Of a DNA stretch of 64,000 bases, positions 2,385-48,979 are shown piece after piece. Both the position numbers and the translations under genes were made by a program. This DNA is from Anthoceros angustus. Taxonomy: Eukaryota; Plantae; Anthocerotophyta. The DNA lies in contig MU008160.1 in NCBI GenBank assembly GCA_010909165.1, positions 868,001-932,000 of the forward strand, read 5' to 3'. Numbering within the stretch: the first letter of the stretch is position 1; every line of letters starts with the position of its first letter. The notes beneath the pieces were generated by a model. The model saw only the letters and a program-made list of their open reading frames with translations. It made no database searches and was not told the DNA's origin.

Positions 2385-2759
2385 TAGGTGACATGATCGG
2401 CCCAGGCACCTTCGAGTGTGCGGTGGATCTTCTTGCGGCGTTCTTTCCCATCGCTTTTGGGCTTGGTTTGCAGCCACGGCCTCCAGCTGTGCTCTTAAGG
2501 AGTTGGGCCTCTTCCCCCATCTTGTCCTCCCGTTTCTTAATTCGGCATTCACATATCATGGAGGCTTTTGTCGCGGGCGTTGAGGAGGGGACTTTTCCCA
2601 TGTAGGCCTCACTAAGATTAGCCAGGGACTCTTTATCCTCCGAGGCGAGGGCTGCCATGCCGTCTTTTTCCTCGCTTTCTGAGGTTGGACTCCGGAGGCT
2701 TCAGGCGTCCCTCTTGGAGAAAGAGTACGGGCAGGCGCAATTGGCCCTCCTCCGGGATT
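2385..2759 (+). mobile_element. CRE-like non-LTR retrotransposon, left part (RT C-terminal/thumb region), split by the gypsy insertion
   Basis: Translates ...GLGLQPRPPAVLLRSWA...RF...VAGVEEGTFP..ASLRLARDSL...LQASLLEKE...LALLRD. It continues in frame into 12954 (SSIPRPTRARLRSC) once the gypsy element and one TSD copy are removed. Confidence 0.7.
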
Positions 2760-3393
2760 TGTCATGACACCCTGGTGTTGTGTTCGGTGAAGGGGTATGT
2801 GGGTGCATGCATGTGCATGAATGTGGTATGTATGTCCGCTTATGGACATGCATGCATGGTGGGCATGCATGATGGATGTGCATGCAATGCTGAACATGCG
2901 TCTGTGAGTTCTGAGGATGGCCACAAATCGCGTGTGGGTAGCGGGTGTCAAAATCGTGATCACCCGTAATTGCGGCAGAATTATTGAGAGCCGCGTTACT
3001 GGAGGCACCGCCTTTTCGTGAGGGTGTCAAGGCGCCGCGAGGCACCGTGATTCGGCGAGAGAAGGCGCGCAAGCATTTAGGCGATAAGATAGGCAAGTGG
3101 AGGCGGATTGCCGATGTTTGTTCTGGGAGGCACGCCCGTCTTTTCGGGAGGGTGTCAGGCGCCTGGCTGTGATTCGGCCCGAGCACTTGCGGGCGGATAA
3201 GATATGGCAATCGGGCCGAGGCGGATTGTCGATGTTTGTTCTGGGAGCAGCATACGGATCCCAACGTAGCATAACGAAGTTTCCTGACATGACGACTCTT
3301 GGGAAGTGTGGATGAGCGATTGGATCCTACATCCAAGTCGAAATGAAATTTTGCACATCACAATCCCTTGATTTGGATCTCGGCGGCGTGACA
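2760..3393 (+). repeat. 5' LTR (~634 bp)
   Basis: TGTCATG...CGTGACA inverted termini; 2770-3355 aligns with 12325-12818. Confidence 0.8.
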
Positions 3394-3889
3394 AAGGTGG
3401 TCTTGACTTAGCGGTGAGTGCTGTGAAGGGAACTCAAGGACATCAGGAAGGACGGTGGAGCATACGAGATAAGTCCATGGTGGTGATGATGAGGGTCTGT
3501 AGACTACTCGTGTTGTTTTATGCGGTCGGTCCATTACGCATTTATGCCTAGCGTAACTAGAACCCGCATATTTGTGGCGGAGGTTGTGGGATGAAGTGAT
3601 TGACAAAGCTGTCATGGTTGGGTGATTGAATGGAAGGGGCCAACACTAACTTTGATGACATGCCATACATAGTTTCGCAGAGGAAGGGATTGTAAGGTAA
3701 TGGTGTTTCTGATGCAGGTGGACAAACGCAGTTTACTCCTACTCGGGAAGCTCGCATCTGTCACACAATATCCCTCATCCATAAGCCAAGTGGTCGGATT
3801 GAGAGGGTGTATAGTCCCATCCGATCCATAGCATTTGAAGAGTGGTAGTGGAGTCGGAATGGAATGAGATAGCGCCTAGTAAAATGATG

Positions 3890-5062
3890 TGTTCACCGGA
3901 GACATGGCGCATGTTGGGCGATTTTGAGGAAAAGTTCGTGGGCAATCGATGAGATGGTGCTCAAGTACAAGTCAAATTCACCAGAAATGGCACTAAGGAA
4001 GATGAGCACGTTTCTTGCGGAGAGGCGACTTGCTACCTGGAGAGGATCGAGATCTTGCGAGGATCTGCGCGGGCTGGCGGCAAGAATGGCCAAGAAGATG
4101 TTGAAAGCGAGATGGAGGAGGAGTCGGTTCCACTGGCGATGCCATCACGTACTGGTAGGCGAAATGTTCTCCAAATTGTGAAATGTTTCCGGTAGCCTCT
4201 ATAGAGAAGATTCAGGGCTGTCAAGTTCACCATCAAGCCCAGAACCTCTCGGATCCGCCTATTTGAGGTGAGGCAATGGTGAAAGACACGCGTGTGAAGG
4301 CGATGCGAAGCCGCCCGGATCTACATAGCGCCCTTGGGAAGACAAAGAAGAGTGATTGCTAATTTCACACGCATGCATGGTGCCGACTACGAGCTAGAAC
4401 AAGCCTATGAGATGGCGAGCGGGTCATGAAGGGCGGCAGTGTGCTTCGGGAGGAGCACAATCGGTGAGAGGACGGCGGCATGCCATGAACAACCCAAGGT
4501 TTCAAGGAAGAACCACTGCCGCACACTCAGTGAACAGCTGGGAATTCCCAACCAGGAACACGACCAGCAGCGCCACCAACAAAGCCACGGTGAAATGTCT
4601 TTGTTGGGGCCGCACAAGGCCTTCAGTGTGAGTGTCGGGTTGGGGGACGAAGGAGAAGGAAGAGCAATGCCGAGCGTGTGCCAAAACCGGACATACAGGC
4701 GGCATGTTGGCGGCTCATCCGAATTTAAGCCAAAGGGGTTGTGGAGCGGATGTCGCCAAGGCAAAATCAAGGAGGTACACGGGCGCTCGATGAGGTGCAG
4801 TGCAAGAAAAGCTAGCCATGAGTGTAAGCAGAGCTCGGTTGCTATCGAGGATTATGATTCGGATCCAGGTGTATGCGCTAATGGCCACGTCGAGGATGAA
4901 CGGACTAGCGTCGACTGGGTGGGCGGTGCGAAGAAAGAAGGTGAGGAAAGGAATCTCAAGATGCCCAAATCCTTTAGGCGTTATGAAGAAGACCGGGAGG
5001 CAGATACGAGAGAAATCACCCATCTTGAACTTATGCTCGAGAAGGTGATGGATGTGCCGTGA
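3890..5062 (+). pseudogene. gag region with CCHC zinc-knuckle remnant
   Basis: tgc cga gcg tgt gcc aaa acc gga cat aca (~4668-4697) = CRACAKTGHT, a CX2CX4H knuckle; located between the 5' LTR and protease; multiple frameshifts. Confidence 0.55.
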
Positions 5063-5189
5063 TGAGCTTGCGTGATCAAAGTCAAGACAACCGTTTAAGC
5101 GAGCCATGAAGGCTGGATACAAAAGGTGCGGGGCGCGACCAGTGTGGATCGTCGACCTCGTGGGGATCACTGAAGCCAGCAGCAGGGCA

Positions 5190-5560
5190 AAGGAGGCATT
5201 GCCATGGTCAATAATCAAGGTCGGGAGGTAACGGTCAACGGCTTTGCTCCGAATATGTGTTGGTGGATACAGCGACCCGGTGTTGCTCGGACGCAGTGCA
5301 GAAGGCTCTCCACTATCTGGGATAAGCTTAAGCCATGTGAAGTGCACATTACCACATGCGGGAACCAAGGAGCGGGTGATGGGAATGACTCGTGAGCCGA
5401 TCGCATAGAGTTCAAGCCGCACAAAGATGCCTCTATCAAGTTCATTGCTTGGTGTCTAACGCAAGGAATTACGATGTGCTACTGATGCCACGCCGCAATG
5501 AATGACCCGTTGCACTCGAAGCGTTTATAGGCAGCGGTGGCGGGATGGGGACTTCACACA
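5190..5560 (+). pseudogene. Aspartic protease domain of gypsy pol
   Basis: GIAMVNNQGREVTVNGFAP..VLVDT(G)A...; CLVSNARNYDVLL (~5450-5485). The same motifs recur at 52437-52715 and ~45540-45620. Confidence 0.7.
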
Positions 5561-5859
5561 AGTGGCGGGATCCCGCTTGATATGAGGCGACATCTTTGAG
5601 AGATCAAGCATGATTGCATTCACGGCTGTCTGGTGACATTGTGCACAAGTGGTGTGGAAGAAACTCGGGAACTCGTGCGGGAAGAGGCAGGAGGCGTCAA
5701 AGCGTGGGTGTATGTATGTAAAAACCCCTTCTTTGGCCGAAAACTTTGGCCGAGCTCACCCGACAAAGCTAGGCTAAGGTGTGGCCCCGATGTGTGTCCA
5801 AAATGTTTGCCGGGTTGGGAGCCTTAGGCAGCGCTTTGAGGATCAATACGGATGTGATT

Positions 5860-6710
5860 CGTGGCAACTGACGAAGCGAGGTATACACCTCATGGAGCGT
5901 GTTCGAGGATCGATGGCGGGCTTGAAGCGGTATTGAAGAGTGGAATACGGGTGAGGAAATACACGTGTGTTGAAGTGGGAGAAGGCACGTCAGGCAATCC
6001 GGATTATCGGGATGCAAAGGCGTATCCGGACTACTAAGCATGGAGGCGGTGAAGGGATGTCGAGCAGGTTACCCCCTGTCGATTGGTAGGGAAGCGGTCA
6101 GTGCCCGGTCGATATCTTACAGGATGGGAATGCGGGGCGTTTTCCGGGCGGTTGTGGAAAGGGTGTGTGTGGAAGTGGCTGCGAAGTAATCGGATTGAGG
6201 AAGTCAATCAATCCCACTTGCGTGCTTGCGGAGAATGTGGGCATTCGATAAACGTGAACATGTGAGGAGGCTGGCAGCTCGAAGTTGGATAGGAGAGGAA
6301 TTCATTATTGATCTTTGCAGCGGGCTCATACGCCCACCGGGTCTGAAGTTTTTGGACAAACGTGACCGGTGTAGAGGTTCTCGAGGCAACATGAGTTGAC
6401 CAACCAGAGAAACGATATGTGGATGACATCTTAGAAGAGGCGATCACGGTGCGGAAGATGGACAAACCTCCACGATTTCCGTAAATAAGGTTGGGAAGCC
6501 GAAGGGCTGGCCCACACTCGTAAGGATGCCCAATCTTATGCCTTTCGGAGGGGGCGGCACCGTGGTGGATCTCTGGAAATGAGGTAGGTGAGCCCAGTGA
6601 TGGAGCGAAAGGGCCATGGGGTTTGATCGACGGACCATCACGGGGCATTTCTAAACATATCGATGCAAGTTCTTTGGGTCAAGCGTTTGATCGACTTGCA
6701 TGGCAATGGT
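5860..6710 (+). pseudogene. C5 cytosine DNA methyltransferase domain (DNMT3-like) inside gypsy pol, frameshifted
   Basis: Motif I region GIHLME..G..AGLEAVLKSGIRVRKY (5880-5965); motif IV GWEC (6122-6133); motif VI ENV (6231-6239); motif VIII AGSYAHRV*SFWTNV (~6320-6363); KMDKP..FP...GWPTLV; motif IX-like EP..ER..MGF (~6590-6630); motif X-like LGQAFD (~6676-6693). Confidence 0.85.
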
Positions 6711-6889
6711 TGAGCGTGGGTGCACACAAATAGATATGTGCAAGGCGGGAGGTGATGCATCTATCGATTGAAGAAGGCGAGTTTCCAATCACAAAGGAGG
6801 TCATCTAACACTGCAGGGGCTGACGACACAAGAAGAGCAGGCAGTAAACTCAACACATGAGTGGCGATATGCGAAGAGTTAGAAGAAGC

Positions 6890-7760
6890 CGATCAACGAA
6901 GATTCGGGATATCTGCTGAAAAGCACACCGCGTTTGAAAGGCGGTATGATATCAAGTTCAAGATCACCACTACCACCAATGAACCGATGTTGGGCGAAGG
7001 CAGGTGAGTCCCATGGAGTGGGACATTGTGGATAGGAGATGCAAGGCTGGCGGCTGGACTAATCAGAAAGTCTACCTCGCAATATCTTTGCGGCAAGCTG
7101 TGTTGCGTTAAAAAGGCGAGAATGGCGAATGGAAGAAGGATGTGTGGAGACTATCGCTTTGAATGAGGTGACACCCATGGAGCGATATCCCATGCCAACG
7201 CCGGATGAAATCTTTGATGCCATTGGAGGCCAAGTATTTCACTACATTGGATTTCGGTCGATTCAATCAAATAGTCATCGAAGAAAGAGACAAGTGCAAG
7301 ACCGCGTTTTGGGGTAAGGACCAGGTGGGAGTGGGAAACAATGCCATTTGGTTTGAAAACGCATCCATTTATTTTCGCGGTGGTCGATTTGGAGTTACAG
7401 TGGATGCGTTTGAAGATGTTACATCGATGACATCTTAGTGTTCGATGTGACTGGAAGAACATCTCCAACACCTTGAGATTTTCTTGCAAAGATTGGCCAA
7501 ATCGGGGTTGAAGGCACACCCAAAGAAATGCAAGTTTGCTTACAAGGAGATAGAGTACTTGGGGCATAAGATAGTTCGGTGGGGTGTTGCCTCGGTGGCC
7601 AAGGTGCAATTGATCTCATGCCCGCCTAGAGACATTGCCTTAAGGGCATTTGGGACTTGTCAATTACTACACCGGTTTGTCCGAAACATGAGCACATATG
7701 CAAGGTCTTGTATGAATTGCTCAAGAAGGGAGTGGCGATGGGGACAAGCATAGCAGGCTT
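6890..7760 (+). pseudogene. Ty3/gypsy reverse transcriptase
   Basis: CGDYR.LNEVT..ERYPMPTPDEIFDAI..KYFTTLD..FNQI....KTAFW; CYIDDILVF (~7416-7442); KKCKFAYKEIEYLGHKI. Confidence 0.92.
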
Positions 7761-7789
7761 GGCGAGTTGAAGAACCGGCTAAGCGGAAG

Positions 7790-8110
7790 GCCAATGCTCA
7801 AAAGGCTGATTTTGATAAGCCGTTTGTCTTATATCACGAGTCGGCGGTCTTGGAGGCTGTCGCCCAGACAGTGAAGAAGGAAAGGAGCGAGTTATCGCGT
7901 ATGCAAGTAGGTCCAACAATGCTGGAAGCAAACTACTCATCGTATGAAGGGGAATGCTTGGCTACAGTTTGGGCGGTTTTACATTTCAGAGTGTATTTGT
8001 TTGGTCGAGCTTTCAACTTGTCACGGATCATCAGCCCTTCAGGCTGATGACAAATATGGCGAGTGGAAAACTTGCCGATGGCTTTTCTTGTCGAGAATAT
8101 GACGTCTGAT
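7790..8110 (+). pseudogene. RNase H
   Basis: DFDKPFVL...; EANYSSYEGECLATVWAVLHFRVYLFGRAF.LVTDHQP. Confidence 0.9.
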
Positions 8111-8459
8111 TATTAGCGGGTAAAGTGCATCTCAATGCCGGGTCTCGGTAGAAACCCAATGTGCGACAAAGAAGATGTGACTGGAGCAAGGCAGGACTTT
8201 AAACTCATTCAAAGCATGCCCAGTTATTACATGGCCCTGATGTCTACAGAACAGGAAGATGGAAGGCAACTGGCTGAGGGAGGAAGAGACATATGGAAGA
8301 ATGAGCAAGCTATACAGCTGCTACGGGATGGACAGGTCACTGGTATGGATGCCTCAGCGCTGCAAAAACTACAACGGAAAATCGTTCGTTACACTTATGA
8401 AAACGGTAAGGTGTGGGTCACGGATCGTGGAGTGCTCAAGGAAGTACCACCCATAGGAG

Positions 8460-9300
8460 AGGAGGCAATTGGTGACCAAGGTACATGTCACGCTTGGCCA
8501 CTTTGGAGTGAAGCGGACTCATCATATGTTGAAAATGCGTACTTTTGGTCGGGTATGTATGCGAGACGTTGAAAAGGTGGTGGCCAAATGTGCAGCGTGT
8601 GATGCGATAAAGGCCGATTCTCAGCCAAGATGTGGTGTTGCATTCGCTACCCATCAGGGGACTTTTCTTGAGATGGTCTGCCGATCTAATGCGAACTACG
8701 TCACGAGGAGACAGACATGTTGATGATCGAACATTTCTCGAAGTGGTGGAGTTGGCCTTTACGCCAATCGAAGTTCGCAATAATACCGCCGCAGGCGTTT
8801 TGCAATGTGTTCTCGTGTCTGAGGTGTCTTTGAGGTGTTGACGGACCAAGGCAATGAGTTTCGAGGAGAGTTTCAAGCACTTTGGATCAAGTCGATAGAT
8901 CCAGCGAACCTCCCGGATCACCCGGTGATGGGTTGGCGGCGTTTAGTCGAACCTTCAAGGACTCTGCAAATATTGTATGGAGATAGAGCCGATTCTTTGG
9001 GGCGAGCTATTGCCTTATGTAGCTCTAGGATCGAATCGTGTGCAAGCGGCTTGGTAACCATCCTACTACATCATGTTTGGCGAAATGCAATCATGCCAAA
9101 CATAGCGCACTTACTCAAGCCCGTGGGTGGGCAGGATCCTATGGGATGTTTGTCGGATTGCAAGCAAGAGCAAAACATTTCAGCGTGTGATGCCATGGAT
9201 AATCTTGCTATAGCCCAACATGGGACCAACTTGATATGCATTCACGAGGAGGATCACGGAAACCCAAAGCAAGGAAGTTTGAGGTGACCGTTTACTGCAC
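8460..9300 (+). pseudogene. Integrase (HHCC zinc domain and core)
   Basis: VHVTLGHFGVKRTHHML...W..M..DVEKVVAKCAACD; LHSLPIRGLFLRWSADL; LTDQGNEFRGEF; lies downstream of RH, which is gypsy order. Confidence 0.88.
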
Positions 9301-9484
9301 GCCGACCCTCAACTACTTTAGATGTGAGCACTGGACGTTTGATCTTGCGAGTAGTCCACGTCGGTGAGCAAGGGTGATTGAGTTGGAAGGGCAAGATGGG
9401 CGTCGGTGCAAAGCACATGAGACACACGGCGTGCCACTTGCCCAATCTTGACACAAGAACGCAACCGCAGCATGGAAACCACCG

Positions 9485-9622
9485 ATTGATGCGCCTTGTG
9501 AGTTCTGGTCACGTTCGATCACGGTGATGTTGCTTTGTGACAAATGCAGCGGAGGGTATCACGTTTTTGCTTGCCACTCGAGAACAATTCCAGGGCGGTG
9601 AATGGTTACGCCACGGTGCTCA
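9485..9622 (+). pseudogene. PHD finger at the integrase C-terminus
   Basis: Across frameshifts: PIDAPCEF....MLLCDKCSGGYHVF(C)L..LE.IP.GEW..PRC, the C4HC3 PHD pattern MLLCD.C..GYH..CL.P.L..IP.G.W.C..C. Confidence 0.8.
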
Positions 9623-10019
9623 TCCACAAGCAAATCAAGTGGTGGGGGCGGGTGCCTCATGAATGTTGCAAGTTCTCAACCACGACCCAATAGGGTCTAT
9701 ACGTACAAGAGCCCGTTCGCAAGCGGCGGCACGAGGAGCATGAGTGTAGTAACAAAGATGTTTTGGATGATGGCAATACAACGGATATGAGTGTTTGAAG
9801 CCCTACATGCAGGGTCATACTTGTTCGTGCAAAGGGTTAGGTTATCAGTGTAGAAATAGCCAAGAGAGGTTCCGCACTAAGGCACTGGTGAGGCACACGT
9901 GATGGACAGGGGGCGCAAACTAAGCATCGCGGCGAATTGGGCCAACAGCACAAGGTGGGCGGCGTTGGCGATAGGAGGTCATCAGGACACCTGTGGGCAC
10001 AACAACGGCGCGCGACTGA

Positions 10020-12200
10020 AGCATCTGGCATCGTGAGGAACTGATCGCAAGCGTGGCATCCCTGCATCAAGGTGATTTGCTGGTCATCTGTGGATTGAGG
10101 TCGCGCTTCCGATTCTGATGAGAAGACAAGCTCATAACCCTGGTGGAGTTGAGAGCCTCTGCCGCACGACAATCGCGCCCTTGTGAGCACGGTTGTTCCC
10201 GGTGATCGAGGTTGGCCGACACCAACGGGTTGGATGCCAGAAAAAGCCATCGACAAGTCTTCACCGCATGCCGCGAGCGGGTGGGAATTGTGACATCGTG
10301 ACTAACGGCAGGAGACCGTGGTGTGGTGTAGAGCTTTGACAATGGATCCGGAAGATCACATGTAAGACTGCCCAGGATGCATCATAGTGTGCCCCACCCC
10401 GAGCGCCATGGGAAGATAAGTGGCGACCGGGTTCGCAAATATCACCGTAAACCGTAACGGCCAGAGACATTCCTGGAATTACAGGCATTTTTGCTGTATG
10501 TGGAGTCTCATCATGAGACTTGCAAGGTCAAAAATTTTCCATATGACCACAAGGATTTGTTTGAACTTGCAGGGAGGGGAATGAATAGGCAAACGTTCGT
10601 GTGGACTAGCTACTGTGAAGGGGCATTTCGCAAATTGGAGCATCACCTCTTTATGCATCACGTGTTTGATCACTGGCCCAAGGAAGGGTTTCGTGTATAA
10701 GCAGGAGAAACCCGCAGATTTGCTTTTGAAAGTGTGGCTTAGTCATTTACATCGGGAGAAAGCAGACGACGCCATAGGCTACCCGAGCTTTTACCGCTTG
10801 CTTGCTGATGTGAATTCTAGAATGGGATGAGCCTACAACCGAGGCCGGTACTTGCTCAACAACAACGCCGGTGATTATTTACGCACCCAAAGGTATCGAA
10901 AGCATTACGTGAATGGCTTGAATGGGCCACAGATGGCCGAGTCAAGACGAGCTTGATGTGATGAGGAAGAAGAACTTATGGCTCGCCACCAGCCGCAGAA
11001 CGGCAGAGGCCGGAAGGCACAAGTGGCCGCGCACCTTGTTGGGCAGCATCGCATCGTGAGGAACGGATCGCAAGCGTGGCATCCGCATCAAGGTGATTTC
11101 TTTGGTCATCCGTGGATTGAGGTCGCTTGATTAGATGAGAAGACAAGCTCATAACCTCGGTGGAGTTGAGAGCCTGCATCACGACAATCGCGCCTTGTGA
11201 GCACGGTTGTTCCGGGTGAGTGGGTTGGCCGACACCAACGGGTTGGCGATCTTGAAATGAAAAAGCCAGACAAAGTCTTCACACGCATCTTTGGCGGCGG
11301 GTGGGAATTGTGACGCGACTAACGGCGGGCGTGGTGTGGTGTAGAGCTTTGACAATGGATGCAGGCGGATCACATGTAAGACTGCCTGCAGATGCATCAT
11401 AGTGTGCCCCAATTTCGAGCGCCATGGGAAGATAAGTGGCGTACTCTGGTTCGCAAATATCGGCTGGTAAGCAGGCGGAGGAGACATTCACGGAATTACA
11501 GGCATTTTTGCTGTATGTGGAGTCTCATCATGAGACTTGCAAGGTCGAAAATTTTCCATATGACCACAAGGATTTGTTTGAACTTGCGGAGGGAATGAAT
11601 AGGCAAGCGTTGTGTGGACTAGCTACGTGAAGGGCATTTAAAATTGGAGCATCACCTCTTTATGCATCGTGTTTGATCACCGCCCAAGGAAGGGTTTACG
11701 GTGTATAAGCACAGGGAGAAACACTGTGACTTGCCATTTGAAAGTGTGGCTTAGTCATTTACATCGGGAGAAAGCGGGGATGATCGCCATAGGCTACCCA
11801 GAGCTTTTACCGCTTTGTTTGCTACTGACGGGGAATTCTAGAATGGGATGAGCCTACAACCGGTCGTACTTGCTCAACAACAACGTCGGTGATTATTCGC
11901 ACCGGTGTATCAGCGATTACTACGTGAATGGCTTGAATGGGCCACGGATGGCGAGTCAAGACGAGCTTGATGATGAGGAAGAAGAACTTATGGCTCGCCA
12001 GGCGAGAAGGGTGGGAAACAAGTGGATGAATACCCGAAGAGGCGGGTGGCGACTTTATTGGCCAGGGGCCACGCGAGCATGAACGCCTTCTCACAACTTC
12101 GTGATAGTATGTTTTGTTCTATAGAAGGTTTTATGGGATATGATGCCCAAGTGCTACTTGAGCAATGGCAGCCGCTACTTTGGCGGGGGCCATTGGCGAT
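10020..12200 (+). other. Extra ORF-like region between integrase and 3' LTR, present as two ~1.02-kb tandem copies
   Basis: 10020-10990 aligns with 11045-12000. Both encode ...LLYVESHHETCKV.NFPYDHKDLFELA...LKVWLSHLHREKA...MASQDEL... Confidence 0.6.
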
Positions 12201-12314
12201 TTTGATCTTAAGATGAGCATTGCGTGTGTGGGTTTGTTTGGGTGCGGGTCATTATGAACGCTCTCCACATAATTTTTCCGTGTGTCTTGAGCAGCTGTAC
12301 GGCCGATGTGACGT

Positions 12315-12949
12315 TGTCGCGACACCACAGTGTTGTGTTCGTGAAGGGGTATGTGGGTGCATGCATGTGCATGAATGTGGTATGTATGTAAACATGGACA
12401 TGCATGCATGCATGGTGGGCATGCATGCTGGATGTGCATGCGATGCTGAACATGCGTCTATGAGTTCTGAGGATGGCCACAAATCGCGTGTGGGTAGCGG
12501 GTGTCAAAATCGTGATCACCCGTAATTGCGGCAGAATTATTGAGAGCCGCGTTTACGGGAGGCATCGCCCGTCTTTTCAGGAGGGTGTCAAGGCGCGCCG
12601 CGAGGGCACCTGTGATTCGGCGAGAGAAGGCGCGCCAAGCACTTAGGCAGTATAAGATAGCAAGCAGTCGGAGCAGCGGGCGGATTGCTGATGTTTGTTC
12701 TGGGAGCAGCCATACGGATCCCAACGTAGCATAACGAAGTTTCCTTGGACAGCGACAGCTCTTGGGAAGTGTGGATGAGCGAGTTGGATCCTACATCCAA
12801 GCTGAAATGAAATTTTGCTCATTGGCAGTTTTGAACAGTCTTAAGATGAGCATTGCGTGTGTGGGTTTGTTTTGGGTGCGGGTCATTATGAACGCTCTCC
12901 ACATAATTTTTCCGTGTGTCTTGAACGCTATGCAGCCAGTAGCGCGACA
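12315..12949 (+). repeat. 3' LTR (~635 bp)
   Basis: TGTCGCG...CGCGACA perfect 7-bp inverted termini; homologous to the 5' LTR up to 12818; followed by TSD GATT. Confidence 0.75.
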
Positions 12950-13905
12950 GATTCCTCCATTCCTAGGCCCACTCGAGCTCGTCTCCGCTCTTGCTCAAGG
13001 AAGGGGGCAGGTTCCTGGCTTCTGGCTCGACCTAGTATTCAGGCGTGCGTTCCGCATCGCACCAGCAACTTTTTCCACCGCGATGCGTTTTCGCCTTGGC
13101 TTGGTCCGTCCTCTGGCTTGCTCTCTTTCTACTACTTGTAGCTGCGGGGCTCCCCCAGATGACTCTGGGACGCATTTGACTCGCTGTCCCGCGGGTGGGC
13201 AGCGTATCACTACACATGATGCCGTCCGGGACGTCATGTTCTCTATTACTAGGGAAGGTGGGTTTCTTCCATTTAGGGAGCACCCTTACACCTTGCTCAA
13301 CGGGGTTTCGCTTAGGATAGACCTATTTTTGACCCGGGGATCAGGTTTCGGTTGCTAATGTGGTTGTAACCAATCCCACCCGGGAGAGTGTCTGCGAACA
13401 TGTTATTCTTAACCCTCCACGTTGAGCGGCGGAGGGATGCGCAACGGCTAAGGTCCACAAGTACTCTCTTATGCAGGACGGCCATGCCTTCGTCCCCCTT
13501 GCCATTGAGACTCACGGAGCCATGGGCAAGGATTTCTCTAGGTTCATCAAGGCCTGCGCAGGCCAAGGTTTATCATAGCCGCAGGAATGAGGTTGGCCTC
13601 CCTCTTTCTTGTATTATTGCTTTCTTCCGGCAGAGGGTTTCCATCGCTCTGCAGAGGGCGTTGGCTAATACAGTATATAGAACGACAGCGAGCGCGGGAG
13701 ATGGAGCTTCTTCGACACCGGTGGTATGTAGGCCTTTTCACATCCTTGACCACGAAGTTCTTCGGGTGGTTGATAGTTTTGAAATGCATGACCGTGGGGG
13801 CTAATCCCCCTAGCATTGGGTCCTTCGTTGGGTTTTTCCCCCTTTGTGTTTGGGTGGATAGATTTTTCCCATCTCTTTTATAATAAAGTCTTCTTTTCCG
13901 AATAA
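12950..13905 (+). mobile_element. CRE-like LINE, right part: CCHC zinc finger, restriction-like endonuclease, 3' UTR
   Basis: RARLRSCSRKGAGSWL; FSTAMRFRLGL; CSCGAPPDDSGTHLTRCPAGGQRITTHDAVRD; RIDLFL; FVPLAIETHGAMGKDF; FRQRVSIALQRA; aataaa signals near 13882-13906. Confidence 0.85.
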
Positions 13906-14260
13906 AGCCAATTCTGCCTCCCGTCCTCACGAGAAATGTTCTCGTCACTGTCCACAGCCGGGCACACTAGTGGGGTACGGGGGACTTACGGAAAATGGGT
14001 GCCACAAGACAAACCGTGCGCACCATATCATGAAAATTCAAAAATCTCCAGAAGCGGCAAATCAGTGCATCACGGCATAGCTCGTCCGCCTCCCTGCTGC
14101 TGACATGGAGCTTTACTTCACGAATTATAGGCAGTTGGATGGCCGAGTTGCAGTATATGTGTCTGGAAGGGGAGGAGGGCATGAAGCGGATTAGAGCAAA
14201 TCCTGCCTCAATCTTGATAGAATCTTGTGCGGGTCATCTTCAAAGAGTGGTGGCTGTGAC

Positions 14261-16853
14261 ATGGCCATTGTATGGCAACCAGATTCGTTGTGGACCCAGC
14301 AGACTGATCAGTGTACAGGGATTCTAGGAGGAGTTCCTGCTCACCTTCCCCTAGGGAGTCAACCGGTGGGAAACAAGCCCGCCTCCGGGTGCAGGTGCAG
14401 CAGTGTAAGCAACCCATCACTTGCACTTTTGAGAAAATGTGTGGGTGGGCAAGGATTTTTGAGCGATGGTCGTCACCAGCAGTGGCAACAGTCTTTTCTG
14501 GATCCTACCATGGGGTGGGAATACAGGCGAGATAAGAAGAGCTGGCAGTGGCCTGACTTCCGCTGTAAGCGATCCGGCGGCGAGGTCCTCTGCTTAAACA
14601 ACTTGTCGAAGCCAGCTTGGGTGGATGAGCAGCTGGTTTCTTGGGATATACAGAGGGGTTTTGGTGCCTCTCCTTCCAAGTCGAGCTCTCCGGATAAGCT
14701 TGAGCCTGGCAGGCGTGCAGGATTGGAAATGGGGGTGGTATCGGCTGTAACCGTGCGCACGTTATGTCAGCAGGGGAGGCTTTCAGATGCCGTTGGAGCC
14801 CTGGAATCTCTGGCGGAGACAGACTCTGCTATTTCTCAGTCTCTATTTTACACCGTGCTAAAACTGTGTGAAGCTAAGAAGAATGTGGTTGTGGGGCGAC
14901 GAGTTCATGACCTTACAGTCAAACTTGGGTACCAGTCGAATGCATACTTGGGGAACCATATCTTGCGCATGTATGCATGTGGAGGTAGGCTGCAGGAGGC
15001 CATGGATGTGTTCACCAGGGTGGGCGAACCGAACGTGTTCATGTGGTTTTCCATAATCTCTGCTCATGCTAAACACAGGAAACCTAAGGAGGCCATACAA
15101 CTGTACCATGAGATGGGTAGGTCAGGAGTGAAAGCTGATGCTCACGTCTTTGTAGCTGCCCTTCAAGCTTGTGCATTGGCCGCCGACTTGGAATCTGGCA
15201 GAAAAGTCCACGGTGATGTGTTGGACAGTGGCATTCCTACTAACTTGTTTGTTGGCACCTGCCTGGTGGACATGTATGCAAAGTGTGGTGAATTGGAAGA
15301 TGCACGCCAGGTTTTTGAAAGCTTGGCCAAAAAGGATGTGGTGACGTGGAATGCACTGCTATCTGGATATGCACAGCAAGGGCTTGGCCAAGAGGCGCTT
15401 GTTCTGTACGGACAAATGGAACAAGAGGGCCTCATTTTGGCTGACGTTTTTTTGCTTGCCTTCTGAAGGCCTGTGCAAGCACTGGTGCCTTACAGAAGGG
15501 CAGGCAGCTGCACTCACAGATTGTTGCAAGAGGACTGCTGGGTAATGTGTGGGTGGGCAACTGCCTGGTGGACATGTATGCAAAATGTGGTGAACTGGAA
15601 GATGCACGCCAGGTTTTTGACAGCTTGGCCAAAAGGATGTGGTGACATGGACTGCTGATTGCTGGGTACCCAGCAAGGGCTTGGCCAAGAGGCGCTTGTT
15701 CTGTACGGACAAATGGAACAAGAGGGCCTCATTTTGGCTGACTATGTGACATTTGTTTCCCTTCTGAAGGTCTGTGCAAGCACTGGTGCCTTACAGAAGG
15801 GTAGGCAGCTGCACTCACAGATTGTTGCAAGAGGACTGCTGGGTAATGTCGTGTTGGGAAACTGCCTGGTGGACATGTATGCAAAATGTGGCAAACCGGA
15901 AGCTGCACGCCGGGTTTTGGACAGTCTGCCCACAAAGGATGTGGTGACATGGACCGCCCTGATATCTGGGTACGGTGCTTGTGATGAAGGTCACAAGGCA
16001 CTAGCTTGTTTTGAGGAGATGTTAGTTGCAGGTATTCAGCCTAATGATGCTACTTTACTTGCCTTTAGTAGCATGCAGTCATGAGGGACTGGTCCACGAG
16101 GGTCGCAAGCACTTTGATTCCATGGCTGAACAGCATGGTATCAAACCTACTATTGAGCATTACGTTTGCATGATTGATCTTCTTGGGCGCGCAGGCCATT
16201 TGGATGAAGCAGAGAAGATGCTCTTTTCATGTGAGGGCCAAAGTAATGTCGTGGGCTTGACGTGCTTGTTGAACGCCTGCAAAAGTCATGGGGATGTAGA
16301 GAGGGCGCTCTGGTGTTTTGATAGCATTGTGAGGCTGGACCCTCAATGGGCGTCTGCGTACGTGCTCATGGCGAATGCCTATGCAGATGCAGGTAGGTGG
16401 ACCGATGTAGACAGGATTGAAACACAGAGAATGTTAGCAGGAGCTAACAAGAAACCTGCAGTGGCTACCATTGAGGTGGAGAAGCAGGTACATAGATTTC
16501 TGGTGGGAGAAAGAAGAGACGATGTTGCGCTCAAGGTAGAGAGCACGAATGCACGCATGAAGGAGGAAGGAGGCCACGTACCTCACACAAAGTTGGTGTT
16601 GAAGCCATTGCGTGAGAAGGAAAAGGAAGATGCGCTTTGTGGGCATGCTGAGAAGCTAGCTCTGGCGTTCGGTCTATTGAACACTCCAAGTGGGACACCT
16701 CTGGTGGTAACGAAAAATCTACGCATGTGCAGTGACTGCCACAGTTCCACGGAGATCATGTCAAGGGTTGAACAGAGAGACATTGTTGTAAGGGATGGGT
16801 ACCGTGTACATAGATTCGAAAATGGTTGTTGCAGTTGCAAGGGCCGACCCTGA
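14261..16853 (+). CDS. PLS-class PPR RNA-editing factor with N-terminal PDF-like motif, E1/E2 and DYW:KP domain ending in GRP (putative U-to-C); frameshifted in this sequence
   Basis: First in-frame ATG 14261; P-L-S repeats; KKPAVATIEV, HAEKLALA, NLRMCSDCH, CSCKGRP*. Frameshifts at ~15445-15670 and ~16070 (pseudogene or assembly error). Confidence 0.88.
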
Positions 16854-20593: not shown

Positions 20594-29512
<8,919 letters not shown>

Positions 29513-30570
29513 CGTGACCTCACGGGAGCTCAGAGCTTGAGCTTCGCCTGTCGCTGCAACTTGGTCGCGCGAACATACAGCAGATCGAGCGTTGGCGGCA
29601 ACTCCGCCAGCAGAGAACGCGATGAATGTCCGTTTCGCGAACCCTACAGTAAAACAAAATGCCGAAGCAAGTTTTCCCTCCCGTGGGTTTCGGCACTTCG
29701 AAGCTTCGACGCACGTTCTCGCCGGTCTGTCTGCAGCGCCGCCTCATCTTGCGCCTTGTTGCTCAAGGCAGTTGCAGCCTGCAGAATGGACATTTCTTTC
29801 CAAGCATCTTTGCCCGGATTTCTTCTCGTAGCTGCAGGCGCCACACCTGTAAGATCGTTCAACCTGCTAGCAAGAAATTTCGCAGAAGCTTCTGAACATC
29901 CTCTCGCCGCCTCATGATCCTATTGCCTGCAACGTTTTCTTGAAAGAACCAGCGATTCCTGTTGTGCAGACTTTTTTAGGAAGGACACGGTGATGAGAAT
30001 TGCGCTTCTTTCTCCAGCCAGTAATGGCTTGTAATTTTGCTCGAGATAGCAGTCCTGCCGGCACGGAGTTTTGTGTGTAGAGCTTACAAATTCAGCACGC
30101 TGTGCAAGTTGATTGACTGATCTAGCCACTGGTTGCCCAAAATGCCATGTTATTGGAGCAACTCTCACGTTACTCAAACAAGCTAGTAGAACACTCACAT
30201 GCAGCTCGTCGGCATACCATAGCTACCAGGAAGACGATTGATTCAGGGACTTTTCGCAGTGCCAAACGTACAGAGCTGTGGCAAGACACATCGAGAGACA
30301 AGATGATGCCAGTATGCTGATTCTTTCTTCTGTAATGTCCTGAAGTTGGGAAACACCCTTCCAGGTAGCTAGGATGTGAACGATCTTGGTGCATTCCGCA
30401 TCTTTGCAGTCTTCTCGGCTTCAAACTCTGTTCGGCCTCAAAGCTTGCAAACCGGCTGAACAGAAGTCGGCGGAGGGGAGATGGCAGTCGAGGACCTCGA
30501 ACGTAGAATGTTTTTTAGTGGAAAAACAAGTCACCGGTTCTACGATTTACCCGAAGCACCAAATCACTAC

Positions 30571-30808: not shown

Positions 30809-33148
30809 TCAGCTTCTCATCGGATATTCCTCCGATGACGAGTCCAGGAGGGACATATGCCCCTTTTCCTTCATTTCGGATACAAGCTCAGAGAGCTTTG
30901 AACGTGTGTTGTCACTCTCCGGATGTTCTTTATCCGCAACCAAAAAGCTGTGAACCAGTCCGTGCATGTCTGTCCACCAGCTCTGGCCTGGCAGCTTCCA
31001 CGCCCCGACTCCTTTCCTTCTTGCTTGGATCTCCTGAGCCTCCTCCCACATCTGGGCACCAGTGTATATGTTTGACATGGACACATATGCTGCAGCGTTT
31101 TTCTTGTCTCGCTTTAGTGCTTCATCAAAAGCATGGCGTCCCACCTCCACATTGCTCCACGTTCGGCAAGCACCCAATAGGGTGTGCCAGACTGCATCTT
31201 GAGGCTGCACAGGCATTATCTGCACCACTGCTAGTGCGTTTTCAAGTTGGCCTGCACGTGCTAATAGGGCCACCATGCACGAGTAGTGCTCTGAGGTGGG
31301 GGCGATGCCGTAGCATCTGCTCATAGCTTCAAAGTACTCTTGCCCCTCTGTCACTAGACCCACATGACTGCACACCGTTAGTACACCGATGAACGTGATG
31401 TCATCTGGCTGGAAACCATCCTCTTGCATGCTGTGAAGCAAGACGAACACCACTTCAGCGTTTGCTTGATGGGCGTATCCAGCAATCAGTGCATTCCAGG
31501 CGACTAGGCTTCTCTGGGGCAATTCATCAAACACTTGCTGTGCATCAACCATGCTCCCACACTTTGCATACATGTTTATCAAACTGATGGCTAAGAACAC
31601 ATCAGCTTGAAGCCCTTGTTTTCGAATCTCAACATGAAGCTGCCTTCCCAGATGCAAGGCTGCAACATTTGCGCATGGCTGCAGGAGGCAAGCAAATGTC
31701 ACAGAATCAGGTGCCACGGCGCCTTCCTGCTGCAAAGCTTTGTAGAGACCAAGAGCTTCCTGACCCATGCCCTGCTGGGAATACCCTGCTATCATAGCAT
31801 TCCAAGTCACCACATCCTTCGTGCCGAGTCGGTCAAATACGCCCTGAGCATCCTCGAGGCTGCCACACTTTGCATACATGTTCACCAAACTGTTGGCCAC
31901 AACAACATCAGCCTGAAGACCTTGCTCTGCGATCTGTGCATGAAGCTGCTTTCCCGTCTCCAAGGCCAAGATACCAACACTCGCGCATGCCTGCAGGAGG
32001 CAAACGAATGTCACAGAATCAGGTGCAGCGATGCCTTCTTCCTGCATGGCTCCGTACAGGCGAAGAGCTTTCTCACCCTTGCCCTGCTGGGAATATCCTG
32101 ATATCAAGGCATTCCAAATCACCACATCCTTCTGAGGAATCCCGTCAAACACTCTTTGAGCTTCTTCCAAGCTGCCGCACTTTGCATACATGTGCACCAA
32201 GGCGTTGCAGACAAACAAACCAGGCTCCACCCCAGTGCTCAACACATGAGCATGCACATCCAGCCCACTTGTCAGGTCTGCTTCCCTCGCACAAGCCTGT
32301 AAGACTGCCACAAACACATGGCAATCTGGCCTCACACTTGACGCCCGCATCTCATGATACAGGTGTATGGCCTGCTTGGTTTGTCCGTGCTTGACATGCG
32401 CAGAGATGATGGCAGACCACGTGAAAGCATCAGGTTTGGAAACCATGGTGAACACATCCATCGCTTCTTGCAACTTGCCATGAGAAGCATACATCCTCAG
32501 GAGGTGGTTGCACAGGAACGTGTCCGAATCATACCCCTTCCACACGACCAGACCATGGACAAGGCGCCCCAGAACCAAATCCCTCGTAGCCACACACTCT
32601 TTCAACACAGTGTACAAGAGAGGCTGAGATACAGCACACCCTGCCTGCCCCAGAGCTCCCACAGCCTCAACAGCCTGTCGGACCTTCCCCTGCTGACATA
32701 GCTTGCACACAACGTCAGCCGTTACACATGTTCCGGCCCCTGTGCGCCCCTCATGATGCACATCATCCAGCAAGTTGCACTTGGATGCACGACCCAACTG
32801 CACATCCAGAGCAGACAGCTGTTGCCGCCCCTTCTCCACAGCTTGAAAACATCCTCTTTCACGGGCTGCTTTGGTTGCAACACCGCTGCCTCTCCAGGCC
32901 TGCTTGTTCCCTAGCTCAAAGCTCGAACACAGATCAGCACTACAGCTCCTCCTACAAGGCAACATGAATTGTCCCGAATGTGTCTTTGTCGCCGACTCCA
33001 CCAGAGCTGTCGCCAAAACGGGCCCTCTCGCCCTCTGCGTGAACCACGTGCAACCATGATTCTCAGAAGCACGCCTTGAGCCGAAGGAGTGAAGCCCGAA
33101 CCCAAAATCCAGCTCCACTACTCCAGCTGCCCTTGTTGCGCAATTCAT
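30809..33148 (-). CDS. Intronless PLS-class PPR protein, E1/E2 with 'WW' PG-box and truncated DYW (E+ type), 779 aa
   Basis: Repeated P-L-S motifs (DAFTWSAII, DVVIWNALI, DSVTFVCLL); C-terminus WKLPGQSWWTDMHGLVHSFLVADKEHPE, then a stop before HxE/CxxC. Confidence 0.93.
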   Translation of the reverse strand: MNCATRAAGVVELDFGFGLHSFGSRRASENHGCTWFTQRARGPVLATALVESATKTHSGQFMLPCRRSCSADLCSSFELGNKQAWRGSGVATKAARERGCFQAVEKGRQQLSALDVQLGRASKCNLLDDVHHEGRTGAGTCVTADVVCKLCQQGKVRQAVEAVGALGQAGCAVSQPLLYTVLKECVATRDLVLGRLVHGLVVWKGYDSDTFLCNHLLRMYASHGKLQEAMDVFTMVSKPDAFTWSAIISAHVKHGQTKQAIHLYHEMRASSVRPDCHVFVAVLQACAREADLTSGLDVHAHVLSTGVEPGLFVCNALVHMYAKCGSLEEAQRVFDGIPQKDVVIWNALISGYSQQGKGEKALRLYGAMQEEGIAAPDSVTFVCLLQACASVGILALETGKQLHAQIAEQGLQADVVVANSLVNMYAKCGSLEDAQGVFDRLGTKDVVTWNAMIAGYSQQGMGQEALGLYKALQQEGAVAPDSVTFACLLQPCANVAALHLGRQLHVEIRKQGLQADVFLAISLINMYAKCGSMVDAQQVFDELPQRSLVAWNALIAGYAHQANAEVVFVLLHSMQEDGFQPDDITFIGVLTVCSHVGLVTEGQEYFEAMSRCYGIAPTSEHYSCMVALLARAGQLENALAVVQIMPVQPQDAVWHTLLGACRTWSNVEVGRHAFDEALKRDKKNAAAYVSMSNIYTGAQMWEEAQEIQARRKGVGAWKLPGQSWWTDMHGLVHSFLVADKEHPESDNTRSKLSELVSEMKEKGHMSLLDSSSEEYPMRS

Positions 33149-33254
33149 ACAGCGCAGAGCACATCTAGGACTGAGCCCTCATGACTCGGCTGTGCCGATT
33201 TCTTCCTCCTTGTAATGCACAAGCTAAATCATGTCATTTGTTTGTATTGGTCTG

Positions 33255-34790
33255 TCAGGGAGCCCCTCTGCCTCAAGTTCTGAACCATCCCCGCCAGCCA
33301 GCTTGGGTGGATGAGCAGCTGGCGGCCTTGGACAAGCGCATGGGCTTGTTGGGCGATTCAGATCCGTGCTGGGCTGAAATCGTGAGCGCACTCTGCTGGC
33401 AGAGGCAGGTCGGGGAAGCTGTGGACTGCTCTGGAAGTGCTGGTGCAAAGGTGCTGCCGTGTTTGTGCGTCGCTTTTCTGCACCGTGCTGAAGGAATGCG
33501 TGGTGGGCGATGGGGGTCTGGTGTTGGGTCAGGTACGGGACGGACACACTGTAGTGCAACCATGTGGTGAGGATGTACGCTTCTCACGGGAGGTTGCAGG
33601 AGGCGACGGATGTGTTCACCGTGGTTGAGAGACCGGATGCCTTCACCTGGTCTGCCATCATCTCTGCGCATGTGCGGCCTGGAGATGCCAAGCAGGCCAT
33701 AGAGCTGTACTTGGAGAGCGGAGGTCCGATGTGAAGGCAGAAGGTAGACAGGCAGCCCTGCAGGCTTGGGCGAGGGGGAGGAGACTTGAAGGCCGGGCAA
33801 CAGGTGTTGGCTTGTGGGTTTGAGCTGGGTTTGTTTGTATAGAACTCCCTGGTGGACATGTATGTCAAGTGTGGAAGCTTCGAAGGGTGTCCGACGGCCT
33901 TGCTGAGAAGGATGTGGTGACATCCTGGAATGCTTTGATTGCAGGGTATGCTCAGCAGGGCATGGGTGGGGAGGCCCGTCGACTGTTCGGTGAGATGCAG
34001 GAAGAAGGCATAGCTGCATCCACTGCAGTGGCCTATGCGTGCCTGCTGCCGGCGTGTGCGCGTGGGGGTCCTTCGGGTTCGAAGAAGGGGGAGCAGCTTC
34101 ATGCACGGATTCGACATGATTTGCTCAGGCTGATGCGGTGGTGGGTTGCAGCCTGGTGAACAGCATGGTTGACGGATAGCAAGTGCTCGCTGCATTGCCA
34201 GATAGGGGCCTTGTCACATGGAATGCTCCGGTTGCTGGATACACCCGCCAAGGAGACAGTTAGCTGGTCTTCCACTTGCTGCACAGTGTGATCGAAGACC
34301 ATGTCATACAGCCCAACGGCATCACATTCCCTCGTGTACTGACAGTATGCAGCCATGTAGGTCTGGTGCAGAGGGGGCGAGACTTCTTCCAGGCAATGAG
34401 CTGACAACATGGCATCACTCCCACCACAGAGCACTACACATGCGTGGTGGATGAGGCACTCGCCGTGGTAAGAAGCATGCCTATGCTGCCTGATGCGGCA
34501 GTCTAGCACGCTGTTCTGAACTCCTGCAGAAAGTGGAACATGGCACAAATGGCCAGCCAAGCTTTCAATGAAGCTGTGAAGCTGGACCAACAAGATGAAG
34601 CAGCGCATGTGTGCCTCATGTCAAACATTTACACTGATGCTCATATGTGGAAGGAGGCCCAGGATATGCACAGCTGCAGAAAAGAAGCCCGGGCCTAGAC
34701 GCAGGCAGGCCAGAGCTGCTGGACAGACATGGACGGCCATGTGCACGTCTTCGTGGTCGGCGATCTAAAGCATTCATTCAGAAAGTGAAA
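33255..34790 (+). pseudogene. Degenerate PLS-PPR (WW-type) pseudogene, divergent to the preceding gene
   Basis: Remnants: PAWVDEQL (tail of the PDF-like motif), IVSALCWQRQVGEAV, DAFTWSAIISAHV, DVVT(S)WNALIAGYAQQGMG, and AGQSCWTDMDGHVHVFVVGD; many frameshifts. Confidence 0.85.
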
Positions 34791-40900: not shown

Positions 40901-42174
40901 GCAGATGGATACGATAATAGGGAAGGTCCGCATTCGTCTGTCTACTCTCGAGAGCGACAGAGTGTACACCAATCTTTACCCTCTCCTGTTGCTCACACCA
41001 CAAGGTGTGAAGAAACACGGTGAGCTGGAGCTAGCAGTCCGATTTTCTGTTGTATCAGTTGTGAACATGATGCAGATTTACACGCAGCCACCTCTTCCTC
41101 GAATGCACTACTACCACCCTCTGGATCCGATCCAGATGGAATTTCTTCGCAGCTCTGCAATGAAGATGGTGGCATCAAGGCTCGCACGGTCAGAGCCTCC
41201 TCTGCGGCCAGAAGTTATCCAGTTCATGCTGGACACCGAGTCCAGCATGTGGAGCATGCGCCGCAGCAAGGCTAACTTCTACAGGATCATGGTAAGTCCT
41301 CTACTTGCCTGCTGACCGTGTCTGTTCAATCCATGGAGCTTGAACTGCCTTTCATCTCACCGCTGCAATGTACCTCTCTCTCTGCAGTCAGTGCTGTCCA
41401 GCGTCATCGCAGTCGGCAAATGGTTTGATGACATCAGCATGTGGAGGAACCCAATCACAACCGGTCTTGTACACGTCCTGTTCCTCATCTTGGTCTGGTA
41501 CCCGGAACTCCTATTGCCCACCATCTTCCTCTACATGTTTCTCATCGGAGTGTGGAACTACCGCTCCCGCCCTAGCTCCCCACCTTTCATGGACGCCAAG
41601 CTCTCTCAAGGCGATCAGGCGGGCGACCCGGACGAGCTGGAAGAGGAATTCAATCTTCTTCCAACATCCAAGACTCAGGAAGTAAGTAAAACAACAAAAT
41701 GTTCATCCTTCTCTCTTTCCTCTTCTCCTCCCCCCATGATTCACCAATGCTTCACCTCGTTACAGGTGCTCTTGGGAAGATACGATCGACTCCGGAATGT
41801 GTCTAGCCGCATCCAGAATGCCATGGGTGACCTAGCCACCCAGGGTGAAAGAATCCAGTCTCTTCTCAGCTGGAGAGATCCCAGGTTTGGATGCTGCCCT
41901 GACTTCCTCCCAACTTGATGAAGCTTTCAATACATCTGGGATCCAGCTGACAAAACCGATTTTCGTTGCTTTTTTTTGTATCAACAGGGCTACAGGAATC
42001 TTCATCCTCTTCTGCCTGATCGCGGCTGTGGTTCTCTATGTTACTCCGTTCAGAGTGGTGGCCGTGCTCCTTGGCATGTATGCAATGCGGCACCCAAGAT
42101 TCCGAGAGCCTTTGCCACCCGCGCCCTTGAACTTTTTCCGCAGGCTGCCATCTCTGTCGGACAGCATCCTGTAA
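37961..42174 (+). CDS. MCTP: Multiple C2-domain and transmembrane region protein (MCTP/FTIP1/QUIRKY family), ~14 exons
   Basis: C2A RLHVEVCNARGLMPKDGQGSSNPYV; YDLVEEMPFLFLRVVKA; KLWYLRVTVIEAQDL; GSTDAYCVAKYGQKWVRTRTI; WSMRRSKANFYRI; PRT_C region ending NFFRRLPSLSDSIL*; GT-AG introns traced. Confidence 0.95.
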
Positions 42175-42600
42175 CTGACAGTACCCGCCTCTGCGAGCTA
42201 ACCCGGACTAGTACACACTACCTTACCCGGACGAGTATACTACCTTACCCGGCATCATCAGCACACCCAGATCACTTGTGTGCCCCATTTTTCTTTTGTA
42301 CATGCCCATTTTCCTCGGGGTTCCACCGATGTATCCTGTTTCTAACATTATTTTGGCCTGATGCAGTAGGCTACCTGTAGGTACCTTGCCGTGAAGTACC
42401 CCAGCTTCCTGCACATTGTTTGGAATAGGGTACACCTAGAAATATGTCTCGCAAATATTTTTTTGGAAGCGGGCATAAAATTTTAATTAATTACGTACGC
42501 GATTCGCTTGGTTCTATGGTTAGCATGACAATTGTCAGAAGTTATGGAAATTTTTATACAATATGCCCTTATGGGAATGGGAAGATGTAAGGAGAGAGTG

Positions 42601-48819: not shown

Positions 48820-48979
48820 GGAAACCCAACCCGGGTCGAACAAGACAAGAAGAGATGTCGTCGCCCTTCTCCATCTCCTGGTTCCTCGTTTTCTGAGCTG
48901 CTTTCGCCTTGCAAGAGATCTCCTTTACATGAACTCCTCAGCGTTTAAAAGAACCGGATCCACTTCATAAGTAGTCGCT

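Follow-up and report, generated by a model that had tools for sequence, protein, structure and literature searches.

A Ty3/gypsy retrotransposon with a DNMT3-like domain and split repeats in the hornwort Anthoceros angustus

A broken copy of a Ty3/gypsy retrotransposon that carries a DNMT3-like C5 cytosine DNA methyltransferase (DNMT) domain between its protease and its reverse transcriptase (RT) occupies positions 2760 to 12949 of a 64-kb stretch of Anthoceros angustus contig MU008160.1 (64,000 nucleotides; here called the window, to which coordinates refer). Its domains follow the order protease-DNMT-RT-RNase H-integrase-PHD. It is a land-plant relative of KnitGypsy-Dnmt3 of the alga Klebsormidium nitens; this assignment is by structure, K. 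nitens sequences being absent from our trees. For the lineage, we lean toward a reading in which the insert, organized as A-coding-B-A-B (A and B being repeats) and flanked by a 4-bp target-site duplication (TSD), comes from a self-primed element. Its complementary DNA (cDNA) would have B plus A as long terminal repeat (LTR), the integrase would open a CA-NN-TG junction within the left LTR, and a packaged DNMT would likely methylate the cDNA.

Coding region and the DNMT domain

The preliminary description, made from the letters of the sequence, had placed the DNMT between a protease and an RT. Both neighbors were located, as was an integrase farther downstream:

3700-4800 (+): probable gag region (weak), Cys/His knuckle near 4670; by eye and by position
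5177-5484 (+): aspartic protease, frameshifted; frameshift-aware score 52.4 against noise of ~20
5862-6715 (+): DNMT3-like C5 cytosine methyltransferase domain, motifs I to X unrearranged, broken here; profile over 5862-6636, motif X by eye
6995-8197 (+): RT and RNase H; score 251.2, RVT_1 E value of 4.6e-8 on one fragment
8273-9450 (+): DDE integrase with H2C2 zinc domain; score 227.4, Integrase_H2C2 E value of 4.6e-10
9452-9625 (+): C-terminal PHD finger; Pfam PHD on fragment 9452-9598, E value of 0.0088 (below the cut-off)

The integrase profile match spans 8273-9580, and a gag profile search scored 20.4, which is noise level. The order protease-RT-RNase H-integrase with a DDE integrase is that of Gypsy elements. 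The tyrosine recombinase that marks DIRS and Ngaro elements was not seen, no search having been aimed at recombinases; a DDE integrase and a 4-bp TSD are present.

A DNMT profile built from 29 of 32 homologues (322 positions) was aligned with a frameshift-aware aligner. Profile positions 5 to 301 matched 5862-6636 with a score of 81.1, across 12 frameshifts and 2 stops. Maximum scores were 21.7 both for 60 triplet shuffles and for unrelated peaks in the window, and the reversed region scored 14.2, which bears out the earlier claim that C5 methyltransferase motifs occur here in the correct order. The motifs include GWEC (6122-6133), ENV (6231-6239), AHRV(stop)SFWTN (from 6332), and, by eye, a motif X-like LGQAFD (6674-6691). 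The stop at 6344-6346 replaces the second Arg of motif VIII seen in relatives and, if real, leaves the DNMT of this copy dead. The DNMT-RT frame is unreadable in the window copy owing to indels. Pfam PF00145, suggested earlier as a check on this region, matched none of the five stop-free fragments (5858-6579) in its plain form, whereas the frameshift-aware family profile matched. Since that profile aligns, the failure counts against the DNMT solely for a tool unable to cross frameshifts.

Repeat layout and target site

Ordinary TG..CA LTRs and a GATT TSD had been proposed as the limits of the element. The tips and the duplication stand: the element starts with TGTCA at 2760 and ends with CGACA at 12949, with GATT on either side. 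The ordinary LTRs do not. Self-comparison (2759-3129 with 12314-12706, 3125-3358 with 12557-12822, and 12191-12290 with 12820-12924) and alignment give the arrangement A-coding-B-A-B rather than two LTRs:

2756-2759 (+): left TSD, GATT; sequence, continuous empty-site frame
2760-3354 (+): repeat A1, starting TGTCA, with an internal sub-repeat and a predicted promoter and transcription start inside; match to 12315-12818, ~5% substitutions
12190-12312 (+): repeat B1; match to 12819-12949
12308-12320 (+): B1/A2 junction GTGAC-GT-TGTC, lacking one base of CA-NN-TG; predicted internal site of integrase action; sequence, sister-family spacer
12315-12818 (+): repeat A2; self-comparison, alignment
12819-12949 (+): repeat B2, ending CGCGACA, joined to A2 without an extra base; alignment, sequence
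12950-12953 (+): right TSD, GATT; sequence

A1 ends in TTTTGC rather than CA and does not recur at the 3' tip, where the terminal repeat is B. The element thus departs from canonical plant Ty3/gypsy elements (the REXdb lineages), which have two direct TG...CA LTRs at their tips. Deletion of the element and one GATT yields an unbroken reading frame (…QLALLRD SSIPRPTRARLRSCSRKGAGSWL…) across the reconstructed empty site, in flanking sequence that we take to be non-LTR-retrotransposon-like; because that frame is continuous, the insertion is real. In a DNA sequencing run (X1, share 0.06, no RNA run being listed alongside it; its contigs do not cover the DNMT), one contig with 33 bases on its shorter side has the start of A joined to position 13316, within the repeat that also flanks the window element (window 12954-13800 region). 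This is another insertion, and it hints that one non-LTR family has been entered more than once.

We compared the window element with a sister family, represented by the top 80 of 491 metagenome loci, some of which are one insertion seen twice. Sister loci have the order protease-DNMT-RT-integrase. The DNMT-RT linker is in frame in 29 of the 50 loci in which it could be measured. From position 8987 of sister locus L003 to the terminal stop, with gag outside the test, no codon is a stop in as many as half the copies (maximum, 19 of 42; 62 distinct copies). All 20 distinct right ends are B-A-B, with a G-tract adjoining B1 in each. A 2-nt spacer separates B1 from A2 in every one of the 20; before it stands CA (15) or TA (5), and after it TG (13), TA (6), or TC (1). 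The A2/B2 joint is precise in 11 of these ends, shortened in 7, and lengthened in 2. An exact 4-bp TSD flanks 11 of the 15 sites with both ends (L067 read by hand), and two more match at 3 of 4 positions.

Repeat A is inverted upstream of the coding region in loci L022 and L076 (at 5726-6016). Copies of the form A-coding-B were considered as proof of one-LTR circles and rejected: L014 (B-A-B) and L018 (B only) have identical flanking bases, so B-only copies can arise by recombination or assembly collapse.

Priming signals and a proposed route of integration

Three predicted signals for reverse transcription were placed in the window copy:

3223-3235 (+): predicted RNA 5' end and self-primer, ~25 nt below ATAAGATA; top partner in A1 of 3355-3367, -14.7 kcal/mol
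3355-3366 (+): predicted primer-binding site (PBS), pairing with 3223-3235 (one bulge), not tRNA-like; complementarity, sister-family geometry
12180-12189 (+): polypurine-tract-like TTGGCGGGGG, immediately before B1; sequence

In 25 sister loci, the PBS 12-mer that follows A1 is complementary to a site in A, G:U pairs included: all 12 positions pair in 9 loci, 11 in 7, 10 in 8, and 9 in 1. In 22 of the 25, the best pairing site lies 119 to 149 nt upstream and below a TATAAA-like box. The 12-mer of the window differs in sequence from that of the sister family and has the same geometry, its partner lying 132 nt before the end of A; within the distance range set by the sister family, 0 of 1000 shuffles paired as well. 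The RNA 5' end is predicted from the TATA-like box. Self-priming of the Tf1 type is thus indicated by complementarity in the sister family and by position in the window. No tRNA gene was found in the window, and RNAfold of 3200-3400 was no more stable than shuffles (z of 1.21). Tf1/Tj1 and plant Tcn1 have been described as having a PBS that pairs with the predicted start of their own RNA (PMC4600332, PMC6317226); we liken the lineage to them by its priming. Those elements differ in having ordinary LTRs, with no DNMT mentioned in the portions of these sources available, and Tcn1 is a chromovirus.

Since the PBS adjoins A and the polypurine tract adjoins B, the cDNA LTR is likely B plus A. RNA would start in A, ~130 nt short of the end of that repeat, and would pair through its first 12 bases with the site just after A1, as in Tf1. 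The plus strand would begin at the G-tract, yielding a cDNA of the form B-NN-A-internal-B-NN-A whose tips lack TG and CA. Integrase may then cut the left B/A junction with a 2-nt stagger, producing two ends that resemble those of processed retroviral DNA. The tips of the cDNA (the end of A and the start of B) would be joined before or after insertion to leave A-internal-B-A-B. The left LTR would likely be preferred, since standard reverse transcription makes it double stranded first. The route resembles a model once put forward for retroviral integration, that of the two-LTR circle junction (Panganiban and Temin 1984), later rejected, as recounted in PMC11054761, in that integrase acts on CA and TG joined via a short spacer. 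The retroviral junction has 4 bases, whereas the spacer here has 2 bases, sits within each LTR, and is distinct from the joint between the cDNA tips.

Some observations tell against this route. The A-B-A isomer was seen at 0 of 25 sister left ends (no A or B within 800 nt upstream); such isomers are expected from an unbiased cut of a two-LTR circle, so a bias toward the left LTR must be assumed. On the tree, the seven shortened A2/B2 joints, two of them from a single insertion, are clustered (3 changes, a count as low in 3 of 500 shuffles), which fits inheritance as well as it does fresh end joining. The search pattern found no PBS in 5 of 30 sister loci. In the window, pairing over the whole of A1 was matched by 23 of 200 shuffles.

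The missing isomers and the clustered joints speak for an alternative in which A-B-A-B arises by extra RT template switches, with the integrase seeing ordinary TG/CA tips, no internal cut, and the A2/B2 joint inherited via RNA. Extra template switches have been modelled for the split-repeat DIRS/Ngaro elements. The repeat layout is, moreover, the same as in SymbioDIRS elements (PMC5890265). However, the priming signals are misplaced for this alternative, with the G-tract next to B1 in every sister right end, the PBS next to A1, and no purine tract before A2. The constant 2-nt CA/TG spacer suits a staggered cut and has no role under template switching. We therefore regard template switching as unlikely, while taking it seriously, and retain internal cleavage by the integrase as the favored route.

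Identity and possible activity of the DNMT

A second copy in the window, near 44 kb, helps to identify the domain:

44369-45626 (-): truncated fragment with protease and DNMT, from another family in this lineage; PF00145 E value of 1.9e-8 (open reading frame [ORF] 44345-45781), profile score 304

Its DNMT is 30% identical to the first one, with no DNA similarity between them; ENV reads KNV, and motifs IX-X are missing. Among 44 PDB sequences, this second copy had DNMT3A/B/C at the top (E value of 5e-9), with bacterial HaeIII at 1.6e-4 and entry 4onj at 0.029. A model of the L003 DNMT domain made from a 45-row alignment had a predicted local distance difference test (pLDDT) score of 95.7, and its top Foldseek match was DNMT3A (E value of 1.4e-18; template modeling [TM] score of 0.74). 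A single-sequence fold of the same domain reached a pLDDT of 33.4. The DNMT3-type assignment of the preliminary description thus holds: the window domain is DNMT3-like by sequence and by the predicted fold of relatives, and it is unrearranged, as is the domain of KnitGypsy-Dnmt3.

Of 184 proteins spanning two domain orders, 173 retain the motif IV Cys, 175 the motif VI Glu-Asn, and 173 the motif VIII Arg-x-Arg. In the proposed cycle, the protease would free the DNMT in the particle, and new DNA would be marked there and enter chromatin already methylated; this is the weakest step. Because the DNMT would be packaged together with RT, the element's own new cDNA is its likely substrate.

Methylation of the cDNA has its own difficulties. 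Motif IV is GWEC, rather than the usual PC, in most family members. A within-family test for purifying selection is weak, shared transversions in the DNMT being few (4 nonsynonymous and 6 synonymous); on these 10 changes, the ratio of nonsynonymous to synonymous polymorphism (pN/pS) is 0.15, and in the same few-change comparison, it is 0.87 for shared transitions and 0.57 for private transversions. The Klebsormidium DNMT domain gave no methylation in yeast, a result that its authors called inconclusive (PMC5890265). The window copy is not depleted in CpG, with an observed/expected ratio (o/e) of 0.89, compared with 0.46 to 0.50 in host genes; in two sister copies, o/e is 0.42 to 0.46, compared with 0.27 in the flanks of L003.

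It is conceivable that the DNMT is kept for binding cDNA, RNA, or chromatin, together with the PHD finger, and that it steers or shields the integration complex without catalysis. The GWEC motif, the yeast result, and the absence of CpG loss would all agree with such a role. However, the catalytic residues are kept in the great majority of proteins of both domain orders, as counted above, and the related SymbioDIRS-Dnmt3 domains methylate CG (PMC5890265). A binding-only role consequently seems rather improbable to us, and we keep cDNA methylation as the likely function.

A bolder extension, which we offer as speculation and think doubtful, is that a DDE-integrase clade found throughout the green lineage has had its integration site moved to the middle of the LTR. 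Each inserted copy would retain an intact B1/A2 junction, and the packaged DNMT3 would methylate the CpG-bearing junction (CGACA..TGTC), telling the integrase which junction to cut or spare.

Relatives and origin of the lineage

A first homologue search returned 32 longer proteins, those with names coming from Marchantia polymorpha (5), Calypogeia fissa (1), and Closterium (3). A second returned 18, with Scenedesmus and Monoraphidium among the names, and Hariotina is named in a further protein. There were 475 homologue clusters at an E value of 1e-10. No Klebsormidium-named protein appeared in three homologue searches, and a scan of viral contigs with P0017 (chlorophyte type) gave no match. 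Of 212 proteins, 209 carry the DNMT, in the arrangements DNMT-RT (12), protease-DNMT (26), RT-DNMT (90), and DNMT-integrase (24), with 57 lacking an assigned order. The DNMT lies before RT in the named streptophytes and after RNase H in the named chlorophytes. Among chlorophyte-type members, the Pfam lists of P0048 and P0013 hold an extra PF00293 and an extra PF01585, respectively; we take PF00293 to be the NUDIX-family accession.

The DNMT is part of the Pol ORF in P0204, P0198, and L003. P0204 runs from the gag knuckle through PHD in a single protein of 2703 residues, and a single ORF covers gag in both P0204 and P0198. In L003, the DNMT, RT, and RNase H lie inside one 847-residue stretch; this locus matches PF00145 (E value of 2e-9) and PHD (E value of 2.9e-10). 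The sister family has no conserved leaky stop behind the DNMT, but two Marchantia models, P0002 and P0005, end ~90 residues past the DNMT domain, so such a stop may exist there; the window copy is unreadable on this point.

Unrooted, quick trees were made for RT (47 of 81 rows) and DNMT (64 of 128 rows), with RT-DNMT rows thinned; they contain no host DNMT3, Klebsormidium, or non-DNMT gypsy rows. Each needs one change of domain order (support of 100 for RT and 92 for DNMT). Between the two origins raised earlier, inheritance agrees with this single split in both trees, and re-acquisition fits less well; one old DNMT capture and one relocation would thus fit the trees better than re-acquisition. 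The idea that 5862-6715 is a host DNMT3 fragment or an unrelated insertion in a single gypsy copy could draw on the five fragments missed by PF00145 and on the window DNMT, which is a long branch without a starred placement, but it is so improbable as to be negligible. Among the DNMT-bearing proteins, 38 of 209 carry the domain right after the protease or before RT. In 79 of 80 sister loci, a protease is followed by a DNMT match that starts at profile position 1 to 10; the DNMT of L003 is in frame with RT; and the window RT groups, with support of 100, with those whose DNMT precedes RT. The DNMT is accordingly a fixed component of the polyprotein in a gypsy lineage, as first proposed, and not a chance insertion.

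KnitGypsy-Dnmt3 of K. nitens was described with DIRS-type repeats and without activity in yeast (de Mendoza et al. 2018, PMC5890265), and it is named streptophyte Gypsy-DNMT3 in bioRxiv 10.64898/2026.05.21.726589. It shares with the window element a Gypsy domain set, an unrearranged DNMT3-like domain in Pol, and DIRS-type repeats (A-coding-B-A-B, as described for SymbioDIRS); the split repeats, being shared, tie our element to it. Its host is an alga, whereas ours is a land plant, and the parts of its description available give no priming or integration mechanism, TSD, PHD, or DNMT position. SymbioDIRS-Dnmt3 likewise has DNMT3 in Pol and split direct repeats, and its DNMT methylates CG in yeast. 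It differs in using a tyrosine recombinase rather than a DDE integrase and is a separate capture according to PMC5890265.

A streptophyte retrotransposon DNMT3 is mentioned in PMC12344493 and bioRxiv 10.64898/2026.05.21.726589, land plants not being named in the portions available, and the accessible text of PMC10952607 and bioRxiv 10.1101/2021.11.30.470311 holds no report of a DNMT-gypsy element in land plants. The REXdb survey demanded TG..CA LTRs (PMC6317226), so this lineage would be excluded. In agreement with the preliminary description, which knew of no land-plant family, we found neither a land-plant DNMT-gypsy element nor integration from an internal junction in the literature searched, most subscription papers and Repbase being outside its coverage.

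Condition of the copy and neighboring sequences

One further repeat was noted in the noncoding part of the element:

10020-12000 (+): ~1-kb tandem duplication in the 3' noncoding region, 10020-10988 and 11045-12000; self-comparison

In the window, the repeat pairs show substitution/indel counts of 15/9, 7/4, 6/3, and 47/58, the last being for the halves of this duplication; 12 repeat pairs in six sister loci differ by 8 to 45 substitutions and 0 to 5 indels each. One X1 contig skips 1021 bases within the duplication, which is private to the window copy or an assembly artefact. Three X1 contigs differ from 5331-6804 by 7 substitutions and 31 gap letters, and all 12 indels listed between X1 and the window (3 more lie beyond that list) are bases absent from the window. 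Most frameshifts therefore look like long-read deletion errors, and the copy may be younger than it appears. The element is poor in CAG/CTG over 3700-9650 (o/e of 0.65, compared with 1.5 to 1.7 in host genes), though CpG-rich; the shortage may come from deamination at CHG sites or from misreading of methylated CHG.

Just upstream of the 44-kb fragment is a 27-nt tandem repeat (~45650-45750), and non-LTR-like sequence comes after the break of the fragment. A protease fragment of the same lineage (52551-52778, +; profile score 58.9), with no DNMT or RT nearby, is found downstream of 47-bp and 104/131-bp tandem arrays (50841-52101). A cluster of PLS-type PPR genes lies at 14195-16853 (+), 46261-48924 (-), 30809-33178 (-), and 33175-34620. 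The PPR ORFs 16026-16853 and 46261-48924 end in GRP and DRH, which are hornwort DYW:KP variants linked to U-to-C editing (PMC9478123). The window also contains three multi-exon or repeat-bearing genes. That at 21833-29743 (-), presumably spliceosomal Prp8, has open long exons, unlike the indel-rich element. The multi-exon gene at 38226-42380 (+) is, we assume, multiple-C2-domain transmembrane protein-like. The FG-rich-repeat gene at 57763-63832 (+), which we take to be plant NUP1/136-type nucleoporin-like, has 36- to 39-bp coding repeats at 63102-63541.

Implications

DNMT3-carrying gypsy elements now extend from one alga to land plants (the hornwort and, by named proteins, Marchantia and Calypogeia), and chlorophyte members with a relocated DNMT domain were also found. 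The split-repeat layout explains why surveys with LTR finders would miss such elements. In bryophyte annotations, DNMT3-like gene models without introns may be parts of transposons, a point that bears on counts of host methyltransferases. Since Marchantia is a genetic model, the role of a transposon's own cytosine methylase becomes testable, as does the possibility that an integrase of the retroviral type acts from an internal junction.

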